NCBI GenBank assembly: GCA_964533515.1
Contig: CAZHMB010000001.1
Span: forward strand, 8,640 to 72,639
DNA from: Candidatus Woesearchaeota archaeon
GTDB lineage: Archaea > Nanobdellota > Nanobdellia > Pacearchaeales > GW2011-AR1
Direction: 5' to 3'
Length of the DNA: 64,000 nucleotides
In this document: positions 13,674-37,737 of the stretch, piece by piece
Position numbering within the stretch: position 1 is the stretch's first letter
Layout: every line of letters begins with the position of its first letter
Program-made: the position numbers and the translations under genes
The notes under the pieces: model-generated
Databases searched by the model: none
Seen by the model: the letters and a program-made list of their open reading frames with translations, nothing else
Told to the model about the DNA's origin: nothing

Positions 13674-14397
13674 AATGAATTTGGAGATTAAAGAGTCGGA
13701 TAATTTTGGATATGATGTTCTTTTGGACGGCGGTTTATTCAGATATTGTAAAACTTATTCTGAATTGGTGACTACTGTTGATTCTTTGGTGAAATCAAGG
13801 TTTAATGAAGATGCTGAAGGATTTGCTTGAAAAAATAGTTACTCCATAATAATTCTAAAAGGTTAAATATACATGATGCTTGGATAAAGAATGAGCCGAA
13901 TTATTAAAGAAAATGTGGACAAGGCAAGTCTTGCTAAATTTTTGACTGAAATTTGCGGTGTTTCCTTGCCTTGTGCAATGGATCCCGATGTAATCAATTT
14001 GGATGTGGCCTAGGTAGAAAGAACTTTGGAACTTGAGGGTCGAGATTACTATCAGCTCTGTTTAGAACCAACAAAAGAACATGGAAGAGTTGATTATAAA
14101 ATCCGTGGAAAACCCCGATTTCCCTATAAAAACCGCGGAAAAGCATATCTCTGTTCCAATCCCGAAAGAGTTATTGATGGGCGATTCCATAAGATGCATC
14201 CGAGATATGAACACCGAGATACCGAAGCCGTCGATTAAGATTCCCACCAAAACGCTTATAAACCTAATTTTTCTTGCAAATATATTCCAGGGTAAATAAA
14301 ATGTTAACCGCTAGTTATACAAATACAATAAGAAATGCCAACAATGAAAATAAGGAAATTTTCAAGCCGGCATTTTCAAGGACACCAGGAATAAAAA

Positions 14398-15360
14398 ATG
14401 CCAACAAGAAAATCACCAAGGAAAGGAAGTTTACAATTTTGGCCAAGAAAACGGGCTAAAAAGTTTTTACCTAGAGTTAACTGGAACCACATTAATTCTA
14501 AATTATCCTCTGAGGCAAAAGGTTTGTCGGGCTTTATATGTTATAAGGCCGGGATGAAATCTGCTTATCTAACGGACAACACCGAAAAATCGATGACCGC
14601 CGGAAGGAAGATGACAATTCCCTGCACAATTCTTTCTTGCCCGCATATGAAGATTCTCTCTGTGCGATTCTATAAAGACCAACTTCCTATTTCTGACATA
14701 TTAAACATTAATTCTCTCGACAAAGAACTTAAGAGAAAAATAAAAATTCCAAAAACTTATACTAAAAAAATTGAAGACGTGAAATCTGAAGATTACGATA
14801 ATCTTTCTATCGTTGCTTATTCTGTTGTTAAAAGTTCTGGCCTGAAAAAAACTCCAGACATCGTTGAAATTGGCTTGGCTGGAAGTAAAGAAGATAAACT
14901 TAATTTTGTTAAAGAAAATTTGGTGAAAGAGTTGAGCGTTGTTGATTTTTTCCAAGATGGTGAACTAACTGATCTTCGAGGATTGACAAAAGGTAAAGGA
15001 ACTCAGGGGCCGGTTAAGAGATTCGGTTTAAATCTAAAAGTTGCTAAATCGGAAAAAGGGCAGAGAAGGCCGGGAAGTCTTGGCCCATGGCATCCTGCAA
15101 GAGTTATTTTTAGAGTTCCAATGATGGGACAAATGGGTTTGAACACAAGAGTTATTTATAATAATAAAATAATTAATGTTGGAAAATCCGGAGAAAAAAA
15201 TATTTTAGGTCTGAAAAATTTCGGAGACGTGAAAACGGATTATGTTGTCGTTGCTGGAAGCGTTCAAGGCCCTTCAAAAAGACAACTTGTTTTGACAAGA
15301 GCGATGAGACCGACTAAAGCCCAATTAAAAAAGAATTACGACTTTGTGGAGTTAAGATAA
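14398..15360 (+). CDS. rpl3: 50S ribosomal protein L3
   Basis: 320 aa. MPTRKSPRKGSLQFWPRKRAKK is the uL3 N-terminus. First gene of the conserved archaeal ribosomal cluster. Confidence 0.9.
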   Translation: MPTRKSPRKGSLQFWPRKRAKKFLPRVNWNHINSKLSSEAKGLSGFICYKAGMKSAYLTDNTEKSMTAGRKMTIPCTILSCPHMKILSVRFYKDQLPISDILNINSLDKELKRKIKIPKTYTKKIEDVKSEDYDNLSIVAYSVVKSSGLKKTPDIVEIGLAGSKEDKLNFVKENLVKELSVVDFFQDGELTDLRGLTKGKGTQGPVKRFGLNLKVAKSEKGQRRPGSLGPWHPARVIFRVPMMGQMGLNTRVIYNNKIINVGKSGEKNILGLKNFGDVKTDYVVVAGSVQGPSKRQLVLTRAMRPTKAQLKKNYDFVELR

Positions 15361-15848
15361 TGACAGAAGATACATTAAAAGATTTGAAAGAAAAATTTGA
15401 AGCTGAGAAAAAGAAACTTGGTTTTAGTTCAAGCTTTGAAGAACTGGATGAAATATTCTACGTGAAAGATGCAATTATGGAAAAAGGTTTTGTTAGTGAA
15501 GAATTTTCTAGGCAACTTTGTGGAAGAATTGTTGAAACTTACCAGGGATGGGCAGCTTATTTACATAGTTTGATCATGCCGAATCCACAAAACTTGTTGA
15601 ATATGGGCGAGAGTAAGATATTCAACAATGATGAGAAAACAAAAATTACAAACTTGATGAAAATCGCAATGGAAATTAGTAGCAGAAATAGCTGGATTGG
15701 TCTAGCTAAGGATGTTGGAGAAGAGAAAAATTTTATTGACGATTCTGTTAACGTATGGAAAGAAAAATTCGGGGAAGAATTAACAGAAATAATGAAAAAA
15801 GTTAACAAAGAATGGAAAGAAGAAGCGGACGAGGAGGTCGCAGAATAA
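15360..15848 (+). CDS. acidic hypothetical protein inserted between rpl3 and rpl4
   Basis: 162 aa. The start overlaps the L3 stop (TAATG), and its stop abuts the L4 start. E/K-rich with no ribosomal-protein similarity. Confidence 0.5.
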   Translation: MTEDTLKDLKEKFEAEKKKLGFSSSFEELDEIFYVKDAIMEKGFVSEEFSRQLCGRIVETYQGWAAYLHSLIMPNPQNLLNMGESKIFNNDEKTKITNLMKIAMEISSRNSWIGLAKDVGEEKNFIDDSVNVWKEKFGEELTEIMKKVNKEWKEEADEEVAE

Positions 15849-27123: not shown

Positions 27124-27167
27124 TCACCCCGCATAAACTTTAAAAACCAATTTCTTCTCAATAAAAC

Positions 27168-28661
27168 ATGTCATTAAGAAGCATATTCAATTTTATCCCC
27201 GAGGTGCGGAAACCCGAGGAAAAGAAAGTTAGTTTTAACGTTAAACTTAAATGGACAATTATAATCCTTGCTTCTTTTTTTATACTAGCCAACATCCCTC
27301 TTTTCGGTTTGTCTAACAACGCTCTTGAGCGATTCAAATATCTTGCGATCATACTTGGTACTCAATTCGGAAGTATTATCTCATTGGGTATTGGGCCGAT
27401 CGTAATGGCTTCGATTATTCTGCAATTATTGACGGGAAGTGGGATTATTAATATTGATCAGTCAACAGCAGAAGGAAAGAAATTTTTTCAGGGGATCCAA
27501 AAGTTATTAGTTTTCTTTTTCATCATATTCGAGGCAATTATTTACGTTATGCTTCAAGGGCTTCAGGCATTGCCTGGCTTGGGCTGGCTTGTTATAATTC
27601 AACTTATCTTGGGTGGTCTGGCTATTTTCTATATGGACGATCTTGTGCAAAAATGGGGTTTCGGTTCGGGAGTTAGTTTGTTCATCGCGGCAGGTGTTTC
27701 ATGGAGATTAATAACCCAGGCGTTCCAATTTGTGAACCAGCAAGGACAAAATTGTTTATTGAATTTCTCTGGAACTGGTGCTGTTGCTTGTCCGGGTAGG
27801 GTTTTATCTTTAATGCAAGAACTGATCTTGCAACATCCTATAGAAGTTGTTTCAGCAGCAGCAGCAATTGTTGCAACGATTGTCATCTTTTTGGCTGTTG
27901 TTTGGGCACAATCATTGAAGGTTGAAATCCCCTTGAGTTTTGGAAGTGGAATGTATAGTAATAGGGGAATTAGAAAAGGTTATGGTGTTAAATGGCCCTT
28001 GTCATTTTTCTATGCTGGAGTTATTCCGGTTATTTTAACGGCCGCCTTAATCGCAAATGTTCAATTGTTTGGGGGGATGGTAGAAAATGCGGCTGCACCT
28101 TGTATCAATCCGGTTGTTAATTCAACGCTTGTAGAAAGCGCTTGTACTGGCGGAGCGAGAGTTGCTTCATGGTTTACTTTCTTAGGGAGTTTTTCTCAAG
28201 GGCAGGCAGTTTCAGGACTTGCGTTTTGGATGGGCTCGACAAATCTTCTTGAGCTGATAATTCGTGGGGGCGTTCTTCCCAAATTTATTTTCCAGGGGCT
28301 GACGCACATATTGTTTTTTATGATCTTATCTACAATTTTTGCTGTGTTCTGGGTGAAAACTTCGGGACAAGATTCAAAAAGCCAGGCAGAAAAAATTGCG
28401 GCTTCGGGATTGCAAGTTGCAGGCTTTAGACAAGACATAAGGATTTTAGAAAGTATATTGGATAGGTATGTAATGCCCTTGACGATTATGGGTGGTGCTA
28501 CCATTGGTTTGCTCGCAGCCTCTACAGATTTGCTTGGAGCATTGGTATCTGGAACAGCCATCCTATTAGTAATTATGATTATGTTCCAGCTCTATCAAAG
28601 TATTGCGCAACAACACATGACCGATATGAATCCTGCGTTCAGGAAATTTATGGGTGGTTAA
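27168..28661 (+). CDS. secY: preprotein translocase subunit SecY
   Basis: 497 aa with 10 TM helices. Conserved position after L15. Plug and TM2 regions GIGPIVMASIILQLL. Confidence 0.85.
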   Translation: MSLRSIFNFIPEVRKPEEKKVSFNVKLKWTIIILASFFILANIPLFGLSNNALERFKYLAIILGTQFGSIISLGIGPIVMASIILQLLTGSGIINIDQSTAEGKKFFQGIQKLLVFFFIIFEAIIYVMLQGLQALPGLGWLVIIQLILGGLAIFYMDDLVQKWGFGSGVSLFIAAGVSWRLITQAFQFVNQQGQNCLLNFSGTGAVACPGRVLSLMQELILQHPIEVVSAAAAIVATIVIFLAVVWAQSLKVEIPLSFGSGMYSNRGIRKGYGVKWPLSFFYAGVIPVILTAALIANVQLFGGMVENAAAPCINPVVNSTLVESACTGGARVASWFTFLGSFSQGQAVSGLAFWMGSTNLLELIIRGGVLPKFIFQGLTHILFFMILSTIFAVFWVKTSGQDSKSQAEKIAASGLQVAGFRQDIRILESILDRYVMPLTIMGGATIGLLAASTDLLGALVSGTAILLVIMIMFQLYQSIAQQHMTDMNPAFRKFMGG

Positions 28662-29093: not shown

Positions 29094-29138
29094 TCTCAAA
29101 AAAGTTACCTTTAAAAACTTCCCTAATCTTTTTTCCGT

Positions 29139-29687
29139 ATGGAAAAAGAAGGCAGTATGCATAAATTTATGTTTTGGATGGTGGGTTTTTCTTTAGTTGG
29201 TTTTGCAATTATTGGGTTGTGGAATAACATTCCTATAATCAAATCTTCAGTCCATTCTGTTTTAGATCCCAGCCTTGGAACCTTGCTTAACTGGAATGTT
29301 ACTTTAGGTATGTTAATTGTTGTTTTAGGATTGACAATTATTATGACTCTTGTTCAAAAATATGGGACGGACCAAGAAACAATTAGGGAGCTGAAAAAAG
29401 ATCAGAAAGAAGTTCAGAAAGAGATGCAGAAATATAAAGAAGATCCTCAGAAAATGATGGAGATTCAGAAATCTCTTATGCCAACGACGTTTAAGTTGAT
29501 GGAACTTTCAATGAGGGGAACAATTATTACTCTAATTCCGTTTATTCTTTTATTCAGATGGTTCTGGGATTATTTTGAAGTTATTCCGGAGTTTAGATTC
29601 TTCGGATTTCTGAGTTGGTTCTGGTTTTATCTAATCTTCTCAATTGTGTTTTCAAGTATATTGAGAAAGGTTATGGATGTTGCTTGA
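29139..29687 (+). CDS. DUF106-like membrane protein (archaeal YidC/Oxa1/EMC3-type insertase candidate)
   Basis: 182 aa. TM1, then a charged coiled-coil hairpin (KKDQKEVQKEMQKYKEDPQKMMEIQKS), then TM2 and TM3. Both the topology and the location next to secY are characteristic of the Mj0480-type family. Confidence 0.5.
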   Translation: MEKEGSMHKFMFWMVGFSLVGFAIIGLWNNIPIIKSSVHSVLDPSLGTLLNWNVTLGMLIVVLGLTIIMTLVQKYGTDQETIRELKKDQKEVQKEMQKYKEDPQKMMEIQKSLMPTTFKLMELSMRGTIITLIPFILLFRWFWDYFEVIPEFRFFGFLSWFWFYLIFSIVFSSILRKVMDVA

Positions 29688-29822
29688 AAAGGCTCTGACT
29701 TGCTTCGCAAGAATTAACTGATAAAGCCTGTGAGATTTGTTCTAGAATTTTGTAATGAAGAAACTATTCTGGAAAATTTTGATTTCCAAAACTCTTAAAA
29801 ACCTATTAATTCTCAAATTTTC

Positions 29823-30227
29823 ATGGCTGAAGAGAAACAAATAGATCAACAAGAACTTATGATGAAGTTTGCGATGTTCGAGCAAGAGATTAAACAGTTA
29901 CAAGAACAACAACAAGCTGTTGAACAAGGCATGCAGGAAATTATGGCAGTAAATTTTGGTCTTGATGACTTGGTTGGAAAGAAGGGAAAAGAAATTCTTG
30001 CTCCGATTGGCCGTGGGATTTATGCTAAGGCAGAATTGAAATCTGAAGACTTGCTTGTCGACATTGGAGAAAAGAAATTTGTTTCCAAATCTATTCCAGA
30101 TGCTAAAAAATTGATTGAAAGCCAGATTAAAAAGTTGCAAGATGTTAAAAAGCAACTTGATGAAACTCTTGAAGAAAAAAGTCAAGAAGTTCAGAAAATG
30201 ATTGAAGGTGTGCAAGGTTCTGCGTGA
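29823..30227 (+). CDS. pfdA: prefoldin alpha subunit
   Basis: 134 aa. Coiled coil, then a beta-hairpin region KEILAPIGRGIYAKAELKSEDLLVDIGEKKFVSKS, then a second coiled coil. Confidence 0.65.
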   Translation: MAEEKQIDQQELMMKFAMFEQEIKQLQEQQQAVEQGMQEIMAVNFGLDDLVGKKGKEILAPIGRGIYAKAELKSEDLLVDIGEKKFVSKSIPDAKKLIESQIKKLQDVKKQLDETLEEKSQEVQKMIEGVQGSA

Positions 30228-31064: not shown

Positions 31065-31114
31065 AGGTATATTAGATTAAGAAGGTTTAAAAAATCTATT
31101 TTTTTAGTAATTTC

Positions 31115-31978
31115 ATGTTAGAGATGTTGATTAAGCCTAAATCTGGTGAGAAGCGGCCGTGGAAGATGTTTTTTATTGGTTTGCTTTATGCGTCGTTGGC
31201 GATTATCCTTGTGCATTTCTTATTCTCAAATGATCCTGCGCTTTCAAAAGCCTCTGGTATGACTGTTATTGCGTTCTGTATAATGTTCACTTTGCCGTTC
31301 ATGTATTATATTATTAAGATTGAAGAAAAAGAAGACGAGGAGATAGAGGGAGTTTTTAGGGTTTGGCAAGCGCATAAAGATGCTTTGTTTGCATTTATGT
31401 GGTTATTCTTGGGATTTGTTGTTGCTTTTGCTTTCTGGAATATCTTTCTACAAAATCCAGATCTACTAAACTTCCAGGTTGAGACCTATTGTTATATTAA
31501 TCAGCCCGGCAATGTCCAAGGTTGCGTTAATGAATATAGTATTGGAAGTGATATAACAAGAGTTACTGGGGGTGCTGCAGGAAGCGTCGCAAGGTTTTTG
31601 TCTATCCTTGAGAATAATGTTTATGTGATGATATTTACTTTAGTCTTCTCTTTAATCTTTGGGGCGGGGGCAATCTTTATCTTGGCCTGGAATGCTTCTG
31701 TTATCGCGGCTGCCATCGGCATATTTACCCAACATCGGCTCTCAGAGATTCCTTTGGGAATTGCTAGATATATGATTCATGGTTTTCCAGAAATTGCGGC
31801 CTATTTTATAACTGCTTTAGCTGGGGGCATGTTCGGCGTTGGTTTCATAAGACACGGATTTAGGGATCAAAAATTCTTGAAGGTTGTTCAAAATGTCATA
31901 ATCCTCCTTTTTATTTCGATAGTTATTTTAGTCATAGCAGCCCTTATAGAAGTGTATATAACCCCAAGATTATTCTAG
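31115..31978 (+). CDS. polytopic membrane protein, hypothetical
   Basis: 287 aa with about 6 TM helices. No motif. Confidence 0.35.
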   Translation: MLEMLIKPKSGEKRPWKMFFIGLLYASLAIILVHFLFSNDPALSKASGMTVIAFCIMFTLPFMYYIIKIEEKEDEEIEGVFRVWQAHKDALFAFMWLFLGFVVAFAFWNIFLQNPDLLNFQVETYCYINQPGNVQGCVNEYSIGSDITRVTGGAAGSVARFLSILENNVYVMIFTLVFSLIFGAGAIFILAWNASVIAAAIGIFTQHRLSEIPLGIARYMIHGFPEIAAYFITALAGGMFGVGFIRHGFRDQKFLKVVQNVIILLFISIVILVIAALIEVYITPRLF

Positions 31979-36579: not shown

Positions 36580-36691
36580 AGCCTGCGCTGAGGATTGAAC
36601 TCAGGATAACCTAAAGGTCACGAGAACCCCTTCTGACGAAGAGGGCCTCTTCGTTACCAACGAAACGCTCTACCAACTGAGCTACACGGCC
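36580..36691 (-). tRNA. aberrant tRNA-Thr (GGU)-like gene with ~39-nt insertion in the variable-loop region and mismatched acceptor stem
   Basis: 5' part is canonical: GGCCGUG-UA-GCUC-AGUUGGUA-GAGC-G-UUUCG-UUGGUAA-CGAAG, anticodon GGU. 3' end has a canonical T arm CUGAG-UUCAAUC-CUCAG followed by CGCAGGC-U. Between them is an insertion that contains a 7-bp hairpin, CCUCUUC-GUCA-GAAGGGG. An intron at 46/47 would leave variable loop AGGUC. Only 5 of 7 acceptor pairs form. TATA ttttttatag lies 22-31 nt upstream. Confidence 0.45.
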
Positions 36692-37602: not shown

Positions 37603-37737
37603 TAGCCCCACCAGGATTCGAACCTGGGTCAACAGGTATTCCCAAGCTCGCTCGCGTTATCAACGCACGCAAATTTAATCGTGCTCGCGAACTTGCTCAC
37701 CAGAACCTGTCATACTTGACCGCTGTACTATGGGGCT
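37603..37737 (-). tRNA. tRNA-Gln (CUG) with 62-nt intron after position 37
   Basis: Exon 1 (37737..37700): AGCCCCA-UA-GUAC-AGCGGUCAA-GUAU-G-ACAGG-UUCUGG. Exon 2 (37637..37603): A-CCUGU-UGAC-CCAGG-UUCGAAU-CCUGG-UGGGGCU-A. Perfect acceptor and anticodon stems. TATA attttttaaa lies 24-33 nt upstream. Confidence 0.7.

Follow-up and report, generated by a model that had tools for sequence, protein, structure and literature searches.

What does a second copy of the start of rpl3 do at the head of the main ribosomal protein (r-protein) operon of a DPANN archaeon? The locus lies in a stretch of 64,000 nucleotides (nt) from Candidatus Woesearchaeota archaeon (GCA_964533515.1; contig CAZHMB010000001.1, positions 8,640 to 72,639 of the forward strand), referred to here as the window. 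A first-pass annotation, made from the sequence alone, had noticed that a 12-mer at the start of rpl3 recurs 63 nt upstream and opens a short open reading frame (ORF) there, and had proposed an upstream ORF (uORF) or a leader mimic serving translational autoregulation. To our knowledge, very little is known about how archaea balance r-protein synthesis. Comparison with related loci points to a different element, an ORF that begins upstream of both copies and ends out of frame inside rpl3. We consider it probable that this leader ORF is translated, that the duplication has re-spaced the L3 start from the leader start, and that the arrangement has a regulatory role.

The window is AT-rich DPANN sequence in which tRNA genes with introns are present, and the homologs of its L3 protein carry the labels Nanoarchaeota, Pacearchaeota or Woesearchaeota. 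The comparison set comprised 80 species-level loci around L3 homologs together with some metagenome contigs; roughly 440 further L3 loci, detected by a genome scan, lie outside this set. Alignment A3 holds 76 aligned leaders, the promoter alignment holds 77 loci anchored on CCAGGG, and leader-frame counts were made in 79 loci. The first gene of the operon, rpl3 (uL3), occupies positions 14398–15360 of the + strand, on which the promoter, leader and insert features given below also lie. Its product is identical to P0001 and matches Pfam PF00297 (Ribosomal_L3, residues 1–309, E = 7.5e-51), and the start at 14398 is secure because all close homologs share the N-terminus MPTRKSPRKGSLQFWPRKRA.

Conservation of an overlapping leader ORF

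The leader ORF of the window (14301–14459; 52 codons, MLTASYTNTIRNANNENKEIFKPAFSRTPGIKNANKKITKERKFTILAKKTG*) passes through both copies of the start region and, being out of frame with rpl3, stops 62 nt inside that gene. Across the comparison set it behaves as a maintained reading frame. Up to the L3 ATG the leader frame contains 0/738 stop codons, against 168/738 and 46/666 in the other frames. The distance from the leader ATG to the L3 ATG is of the form 3n+1 in 72 loci, 3n+2 in 7 and 3n in 0 (p about 8e-27), the 3n+1 spacings seen being 22, 25, 28, 31, 34, 37, 40, 97 and 106 nt. A (T)CCGC motif, whose CCGC falls in codons 3–4 of the window leader ORF (14308–14311), is nearly invariant in A3; in L009, L057 and L072 it is kept at the nucleotide level in another codon register, and even there the leader frame is restored. 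The leader ORF always crosses the L3 start and ends 50–115 nt inside L3, most commonly at nt 65.

The leader start is conserved as well. AAATG is invariant in the 76 aligned leaders, GGG stands 4–14 nt upstream of the leader ATG, and the ATAAAATG context of this ATG is the same as that of L4, L23 and S19. In L002 (CAYWQI010000004), the nearest available relative, the leader ORF is likewise open (60 codons), and in the window and L002, the two genomes that carry the duplication as an insert, the leader frame stays open across 21–24 extra codons. The leader peptides gave no Pfam match.

Codon choice within L3 follows the same frame. Over about the first 47 nt of L3, T-ending codons that would open stops in the leader frame are avoided: ACT is found in 0/68 cases at T3, CCT in 0/82 at P7 and GGT in 0/81 at G10, compared with baselines of 30%, 48% and 14%, respectively, in the same context later in L3. 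At P16, CCT occurs in 3/72 cases before AGR and in 6/12 before CGN, and in two of the three CCT-AGR exceptions (L034 and L083) the leader ORF is in the other frame. At P25, CCT-AG is nearly universal and serves as a backstop.

Avoidance of CTAG was considered as the cause of the missing ACT-AGA and CCT-AGA and rejected: the observed/expected ratio of CTAG in the window is 0.85, the same dipeptides have T-ending codons in 30–48% of cases elsewhere in L3, and CCT-AG is the sequence found at P25. A general preference for A at the 5′ end is a partial explanation only, given that CCT makes up 32/72 of the Pro codons at P2 and that the absent T is replaced by G at P7.

On these three independent lines of comparison (the leader frame is kept, it is free of stops, and codon choice in L3 holds it open), we conclude that the leader ORF is probably translated and that termination near the L3 start appears to be selected against. 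The conserved and apparently translated element is this ORF, which begins at 14301 in a different frame and which the first-pass annotation had overlooked. Literature searches returned no description of a DPANN leader ORF of this kind, and as far as the searched literature shows it is previously undescribed.

A separate observation concerns codons 12–13 of L3 (window 14431–14436). Across about 85 loci from AT-rich genomes, Leu12 is mostly TTG or CTG (66/84) and Gln13 is CAG as often as CAA; this usage may be a further constraint from the leader frame, favouring Ala/Val rather than Thr/Ile there.

Promoter and ordinary leader layout

A single architecture upstream of L3 is found in about 77 loci of the comparison set. 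Read 5′ to 3′, the ordinary layout consists of an A-run resembling a transcription factor B recognition element (BRE), the TATA box TTTAAAA, TTTTTCT, an AT-rich stretch and an invariant TCCAGGG, followed after 4–14 nt by an invariant AAAATG, one or two codons, TCCGC, a variable stretch and TAAGAAATGCC, the start of L3. The window has the same series of elements across 14247–14339, and its upstream copy stands at the position where about 75 relatives (Pace-, Woese- and Nanoarchaeota) have their real L3 start.

The L3 operon promoter of the window (14247–14262) is composed of a BRE-like A-rich segment (14247–14254) and the TATA box TTATAAA (14256–14262); positions –37 to –25 of the 77 anchored loci read AAAAcc-TTTAAAA. 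Downstream lies the T-rich promoter-proximal element TTTTCTT (14269–14275), which is conserved at –18 to –12 in related loci and resembles an element of the window's leaderless promoters, such as the one ahead of 27168. The TCCAGGG at 14286–14292, with T in 77/77 loci and GG in 76/77 and 74/77 beyond the CCAGGG anchor, would mark the region of the transcription start site (TSS) and provide a Shine–Dalgarno (SD)-like sequence for the leader ORF. In the window, 23 nt separate this motif from the end of the TATA box. At four tRNA genes of the window the TATA box stands 23–24 nt ahead of the mature 5′ end, and at four of its leaderless genes 21–23 nt ahead of the ATG. Because the spacings match, transcription most probably starts near 14286, upstream of both repeat copies.

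TCCAGGG was dismissed as a general promoter or start motif, its other five copies in the window lying in unrelated contexts. Leaderless-looking genes with TATA boxes of the cTTTAAAAAcc type are seen at window positions 27138–27170, 29109–29141, 29793–29825 and 31085–31117. UCCAG (14286–14290) and CCGC (14308–14311) would each be complementary to one of two neighbouring parts of the usual 3′ region of archaeal 16S rRNA (...GCGG-CUGGA-UCACCUCC), a candidate lead only. The UCCAG and CCGC motifs are likewise present in about 75 loci.

No conserved RNA structure was found in the ordinary leaders. RNAalifold returned 0 pairs for the 76 leaders and, when the first 78 nt of L3 were included, 5 invariant pairs (–2 kcal/mol). 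An Rfam search gave nothing at the gathering score and only chance-level hits among those with E up to 10.

A minority of loci depart from the ordinary layout. A second type of region upstream of L3, lacking both TCCAGGG and the leader ORF, is found in L022, L026, L036, L066 (about 2415–2455) and L093 (about 398–440). A 37-nt element, GGATTGACTCTGAAAYCTATGAGTGTAAAAATAATCC, is shared by these loci almost unchanged; it folds into a hairpin of two stems with 10 invariant pairs and has no Rfam match. The hairpin is followed by TTATTTCT and then by an SD-like GGA or GGGA 9–10 nt before the L3 ATG.

Two further loci show modified starts. In L077 (about 2484–2510), TCCAGGG is followed after 7 nt by the L3 ATG itself (MAAKKSPRKGS), and a CCGC-like motif survives in ATGGCCGCA; a deletion seems to have joined the starts of the leader ORF and of L3 into one. 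That the SD-led first ATG of this locus is the L3 start supports the leader ATG as a working initiation site. In L092 (150–200), the TCCGC motif has given rise to an additional ATG (AAATGCCGC) in the L3 frame, 27 nt upstream of the L3 ATG. No stop codon intervenes, and the gene caller accordingly called a protein longer by 9 residues at its N-terminus (P0091). The distance between leader ATG and L3 ATG in this locus still has the form 3n+1 (34 nt).

The duplicated rpl3 start

The recurrence that had first drawn attention to the locus is real. The 12-mer AAATGCCAACAA is found exactly at 14333–14344 and 14396–14407, 63 nt apart, and at up to one mismatch it has 6 matches in the window, against 0.94 expected. 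The original observation was correct but understated, as all 63 nt are duplicated, beyond the 12-mer: the segment 14335–14397 repeats codons 1–21 of rpl3 (nt 1–63) in tandem, in decayed form and in frame with the gene. The ATGs at 14335 and 14398 share a frame and are 21 codons apart, and the copies are adjacent head to tail, the second beginning where the first ends, so that the spacing equals the unit length. Global alignment of 14335–14397 with rpl3 nt 1–66 gave z = 7.4 (0/2000 shuffles), and z = 4.3 was still obtained without the identical first 10 nt; the ungapped part of the repeat (family D2) covers 23 nt at 87% identity. In A3 the old ATG (14335) is aligned with the L3 ATG of 74 relatives, which represent the unduplicated state at the same site, and the real rpl3 start of the window lineage is displaced exactly 63 nt downstream. 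Compared with the true 5′ end of L3, the upstream copy has a GCCGGC insertion and point changes, which create stems.

The L3 proteins of the window and of L002 are each other's best hit (68% identity; 498 bits, compared with 455 for the next). The same 63-nt insert is present in L002 with no indels and with 43/63 positions identical (68%), whereas four-fold degenerate sites of L3 are 49% identical between the two (binomial p about 0.002 for the excess in the insert). The upstream copy of L002 no longer resembles its own L3 (alignment z 0.4), which indicates that the duplication is old. It predates the split of the window organism and L002 and has been retained. Conservation in relatives had been named by the first-pass annotation as a check on its observation, and the duplication is indeed present in the closest relative available.

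Among the loci compared, these two genomes are the only carriers of the insert. A genome scan with a single protein gave no further members of the duplication clade, a pattern scan of metagenomes for the clade gave three hits, all spurious, and a second protein search, from P0002, gave no closer relatives. The contigs of P0003, P0005, P0104, P0121 and P0008 (the last cut 10 nt before L3) have ordinary leaders.

The ORF that had been noted at the upstream copy exists as described in the window: the ATG at 14335 opens 19 codons (MPTMKIRKFSSRHFQGHQE*; 14335–14394), and its TAA (14392–14394) is separated from the L3 ATG (14398) by AAA, a distance of 3 nt. In L002, by comparison, this mini-ORF has 14 codons rather than 19; three in-frame stops are present, the first lying 18 nt upstream of the L3 ATG, with a further TAA at –6. 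The 20 substitutions between the two inserts show no codon periodicity in the mini-ORF frame. The proposal of a uORF or leader mimic thus holds in part, in that the duplication is real and, lying downstream of the likely TSS, would be in the mRNA leader; the mini-ORF, however, is not conserved as an ORF. We infer that it is a by-product of the duplication and not a functional peptide.

Other ways of reading the locus were considered and set aside. An internal promoter making L3 or the mini-ORF leaderless was rejected, with no TATA box seen by sequence reading at the required 21–23 nt. A programmed +1 frameshift from the leader ORF into L3 was rejected because the L3 ATG is invariant, the N-terminus is conserved as protein and no conserved shift site lies upstream. 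Stop-codon reassignment, or readthrough of the in-frame TAA, was ruled out, since rpl3 itself stops at TAA where its homologs end.

Predicted RNA structure of the insert

The feature common to the two inserts appears to be an RNA hairpin rather than the mini-ORF. In both genomes the upstream copy is predicted to pair with a complementary segment that evolved inside the insert, giving a two-stem hairpin over the old AUG (hairpin 1, 14332–14376 in the window). The outer stem pairs GAAAUGCC (14332–14339), which includes the old AUG, with GGCAUUUU (14369–14376), and the inner stem pairs UGAAAAU (14345–14351) with AUUUUCA (14358–14364) around a loop at 14352–14357. Its folding energy in the window is –12.9 kcal/mol, compared with –4.6 ± 2.2 for shuffled sequences (z –3.8, 0/200 shuffles), and a hairpin of the same architecture in L002 has –12.4 kcal/mol (z –4.1). 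Hairpin 1 belongs to the minimum free energy structure of the whole leader in both genomes. Its 15 consensus pairs include 1 compensatory change (C-G to U-A), 2 changes to wobble pairs and 0 broken pairs, and substitutions between the two inserts fall at 4/27 paired compared with 16/36 unpaired positions. No structure like hairpin 1 was found in ordinary L3 5′ regions. Structure prediction for the leader, another check that had been suggested, therefore gave a stable hairpin in both genomes, with the AUG of the upstream copy paired in its outer stem instead of being free.

Because the middle segment of the insert complements one repeat copy, pairing with the other is possible too. In an alternative hairpin 2 (14358–14413), which derives from a 19-nt inverted repeat of 79% complementarity (I1), positions 14358–14376 would pair with 14396–14402 and 14408–14413, burying the rpl3 AUG. 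The predicted energy of this fold is –10.7 kcal/mol (z –3.0) in the window against –4.4 kcal/mol (z –1.8) in L002. Such pairing of the middle segment with the true start is possible but unproven, and hairpin 2 may be a by-product of the duplication.

By sequence reading, an SD-like AGGA is found at 14387–14390, 7 nt before the rpl3 ATG of the window. It is absent from L002 and from ordinary leaders, and present in the second leader type that lacks the leader ORF.

Discussion

The reading that we favour, and think probable, is that of a translated overlapping leader ORF from whose start the duplication has moved L3 away. Ribosomes would load at the 5′-proximal leader AUG and then pass over the start of L3; translation of the leader and initiation at L3 would thus compete for the same 40–100 nt of the transcript. 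With stops excluded between about –40 and +47 relative to the L3 AUG, slowly terminating ribosomes would be kept off the L3 initiation region. In the lineage of the window and L002, the duplication would have parted the two initiation sites; the hairpin would silence the redundant old start and leave the new one open. This new start is A-rich and, in the window, could make use of its own AGGA 7 nt upstream, much as the minority relatives without a leader ORF could use their GGA or GGGA.

Several points weigh against this reading. The TSS and the translation of the leader ORF are both drawn from comparison only, the L3 AUG of ordinary leaders has no SD sequence, and the effect of the leader ORF on L3 may be repression, protection or loading. 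The loci are species representatives and phylogenetically non-independent, so that the p-values are overstated. With the insert in two genomes only, support for the hairpin consists of one compensatory pair and thermodynamics. Further, ATAAGAAATGC is identical in both genomes, although loss of the ATG would have been a simpler way of silencing the old start; it may have been retained for another reason, such as its role as a stem arm or as leader-ORF codons. The functional statements made here are comparative, from uncultivated genomes, and the hairpin among them is predicted from two sequences.

Termination–reinitiation had been suggested for this locus, with the mini-ORF (14335–14394) translated from the old start and L3 reached at UAA-AAA-AUG. 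The old start does have the exact consensus L3 context ATAAGAAATGCC, it lies 34 nt from the leader ATG, within the 22–40 nt of the relatives, and its ATG is kept in both genomes; the mini-ORF stop is 3 nt before the L3 ATG, and TAA-AAA-ATG is found in L002 too. Yet in both genomes a predicted hairpin of about –12.5 kcal/mol holds the AUG in its outer stem of 8–10 bp, which argues against efficient initiation there and against this as the main route to L3. The shorter mini-ORF of L002, ending 18 nt before the L3 ATG after 14 codons instead of 19, the absence of codon-position bias among the substitutions and the overlap of the whole mini-ORF by the leader ORF in another frame speak against it as well, and we regard this route as improbable. 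A switch of three regions would instead assign roles to the old start (region 1), the anti-start at 14358–14376 (region 2) and the true start (region 3): with region 1 free, regions 1 and 2 would pair and L3 would be open, whereas a ribosome translating the leader ORF across region 1 would free region 2 to pair with region 3, hiding the L3 AUG. The ancestral competition between leader ORF and L3 would thereby be restored at a distance. Region 2 is complementary to both start copies (I1), the 2:3 fold of the window is predicted to be stable (–10.7 kcal/mol, z –3.0) with the same two-stem layout in L002, and the leader ORF, open in both genomes, spans all three regions. In L002, however, the 2:3 pairing falls to –4.4 kcal/mol (z –1.8), none of the covariation observed is specific to 2:3, and any complement of one repeat copy automatically complements the other, so that the pairing is perhaps a by-product. 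We consider such a switch rather unlikely.

The hairpin could also be an operator for an r-protein of the operon (L3, L4 or L23), exerting autogenous control by mimicry of an rRNA site. It is a stable, conserved hairpin with an internal loop that heads the main r-protein operon and adjoins the L3 ribosome-binding region, and there is a precedent in the L4 leader candidate upstream of rplC-rplD-rplW-rplB in Archaeoglobi (PMC7247131). Against this, there was no Rfam match at any threshold, and with no conserved structure in the roughly 75 relatives without the insert, operator control would be a novelty of one small clade. Nothing tested points to the binding of an r-protein to a mimic of its own start, as had been envisaged earlier, and we hold this to be very unlikely. 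The remaining alternative is a neutral relic, a tolerated scar without function in which the hairpin and the open frame are coincidental. The insert is found in two genomes only, AT-rich sequence of low complexity inflates identity, and the L002 copy is unlike its own L3 (z 0.4). However, the insert has kept its exact length and 68% identity, compared with 49% at four-fold sites; the fold has a z of about –4 in both genomes with only pair-preserving changes; the stems are depleted in substitutions; and the leader frame is open over 21–24 extra codons in both. Coincidence on this scale seems to us highly improbable, and we return to the translated leader ORF with a re-spaced L3 start as the reading that we prefer.

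The anatomy of the leader ORF may be compared with known systems. Mammalian ATF4 uORF2 is an inhibitory uORF that overlaps the main ORF out of frame, ends inside it and excludes initiation at the main AUG. Like it, the DPANN leader ORF starts before the main start and ends out of frame inside the main ORF. Unlike it, the DPANN system is archaeal and known by comparison only; it is led by an SD-like sequence, begins 13–20 nt from the likely 5′ end and involves neither scanning nor a uORF1, and the main gene is the head of an r-protein operon. An SD-like sequence close to the mRNA 5′ end is also seen in the STAB-SD of Bacillus cryIIIA, a 5′-proximal mRNA stabiliser for which no ORF is needed. 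In the DPANN leaders, the SD-like sequence lies similarly few bases from the 5′ end and could hold a small subunit there and protect the long polycistronic mRNA, but constraint here extends to the ATG, the frame and the position of the stop.

Autogenous r-protein leaders include the E. coli S10 leader with L4, Methanococcus L1 and archaeal L7Ae. As in these, the conserved DPANN element is located in the 5′ leader of an operon, headed by L3, where feedback would be expected. For leaders of L3-L4-L23-L2 operons in archaea, the literature searched yielded only the Archaeoglobi ‘L4’ candidate, a structured RNA upstream of rplC-rplD-rplW-rplB (PMC7247131). While autogenous leaders are characterized by conserved RNA structure, the ordinary DPANN leader has neither structure nor an Rfam match, and its signature is a reading frame; a hairpin is predicted in the insert of the window and L002 only, and no protein ligand is indicated.

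Trp-type attenuators and ermC are leader-peptide switches that work through alternative pairing. The leader ORF of the window likewise crosses a segment with two possible partners, one of the pairings being predicted to hide the downstream ribosome-binding site. The differences are that the partners are the two copies of a duplicated start, that the second pairing is weak in L002, and that the leader ORF of the window runs into the regulated gene instead of stopping before it. As a sequence event, the insert resembles an in-frame tandem duplication at a 5′ end followed by decay, being head to tail, with a unit equal to the spacing (63 nt, 21 codons) and similarity over the full unit. Plain decay would not account for the gain of GCCGGC and of point changes that give a two-stem hairpin, or for the retention of length and ATG in two deeply diverged genomes. 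In anatomy, the leader ORF would stand closest to an out-of-frame overlapping uORF, and the insert closest to a leader-peptide switch whose parts come from duplication of a start.

The duplicated start is a retained and restructured relic of moderate interest alone, and the leader ORF that it interrupts is more notable. In about 80 species-level genomes, the operon appears to be headed by a small reading frame rather than by a folded RNA, which offers a testable handle on translational control in tiny genomes with very few regulators. The locus also suggests that dual-coding constraint can shape the first 16 codons of a universal r-protein. The duplication in the window may be seen as a natural experiment, in which the L3 start was moved off the leader start and what evolved in compensation was a new SD sequence together with a hairpin that covers the old start. 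More broadly, and only tentatively, we hypothesize that a large DPANN group controls its main r-protein operon by means of a translated overlapping leader ORF and not by a protein-binding RNA, and that the window lineage has turned the spare copy of the L3 start into an RNA switch that keeps this control at a distance. If so, the output of the operon would depend on the supply of initiating ribosomes, which would amount to a ribosome-sensing feedback.

Other features of the operon and the window

The order of the operon in the window is L3, a 162-amino acid (aa) ORF, L4, L23, L2, S19, L22 and S3. The 162-aa ORF (15360–15848, + strand) gave no Pfam match, and its ATG overlaps the rpl3 stop (ATAATG). 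In relatives, the gap between L3 and L4 holds ORFs of unrelated size (119 aa in L082, 104 aa in L085 and 78 aa in L092), and in L083, L090 and L093 L4 follows L3 directly, with no ORF between. Internal genes of the operon have SD sequences of the GGAGG or GGGG type together with the ATAAAATG context; the G-rich CAGGGGAA ahead of S19 is an example. A scan for intrinsic terminators found none, and the 72-aa ORF at 14081 gave no Pfam match. Neither the window nor the compared loci contain an rRNA gene.

A direct repeat, AATCCGTGGAAAA / AAACCGCGGAAAA, with copies 30 nt apart, is present at 14100–14142, some 110 nt ahead of the L3 TATA box, in a 385-nt stretch without a called gene, and could be a candidate binding site for a regulator. 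On the – strand, two tRNA genes of 112 and 135 nt (36580–36691 and 37603–37737) were detected by Rfam and not by ARAGORN, and presumably contain introns.

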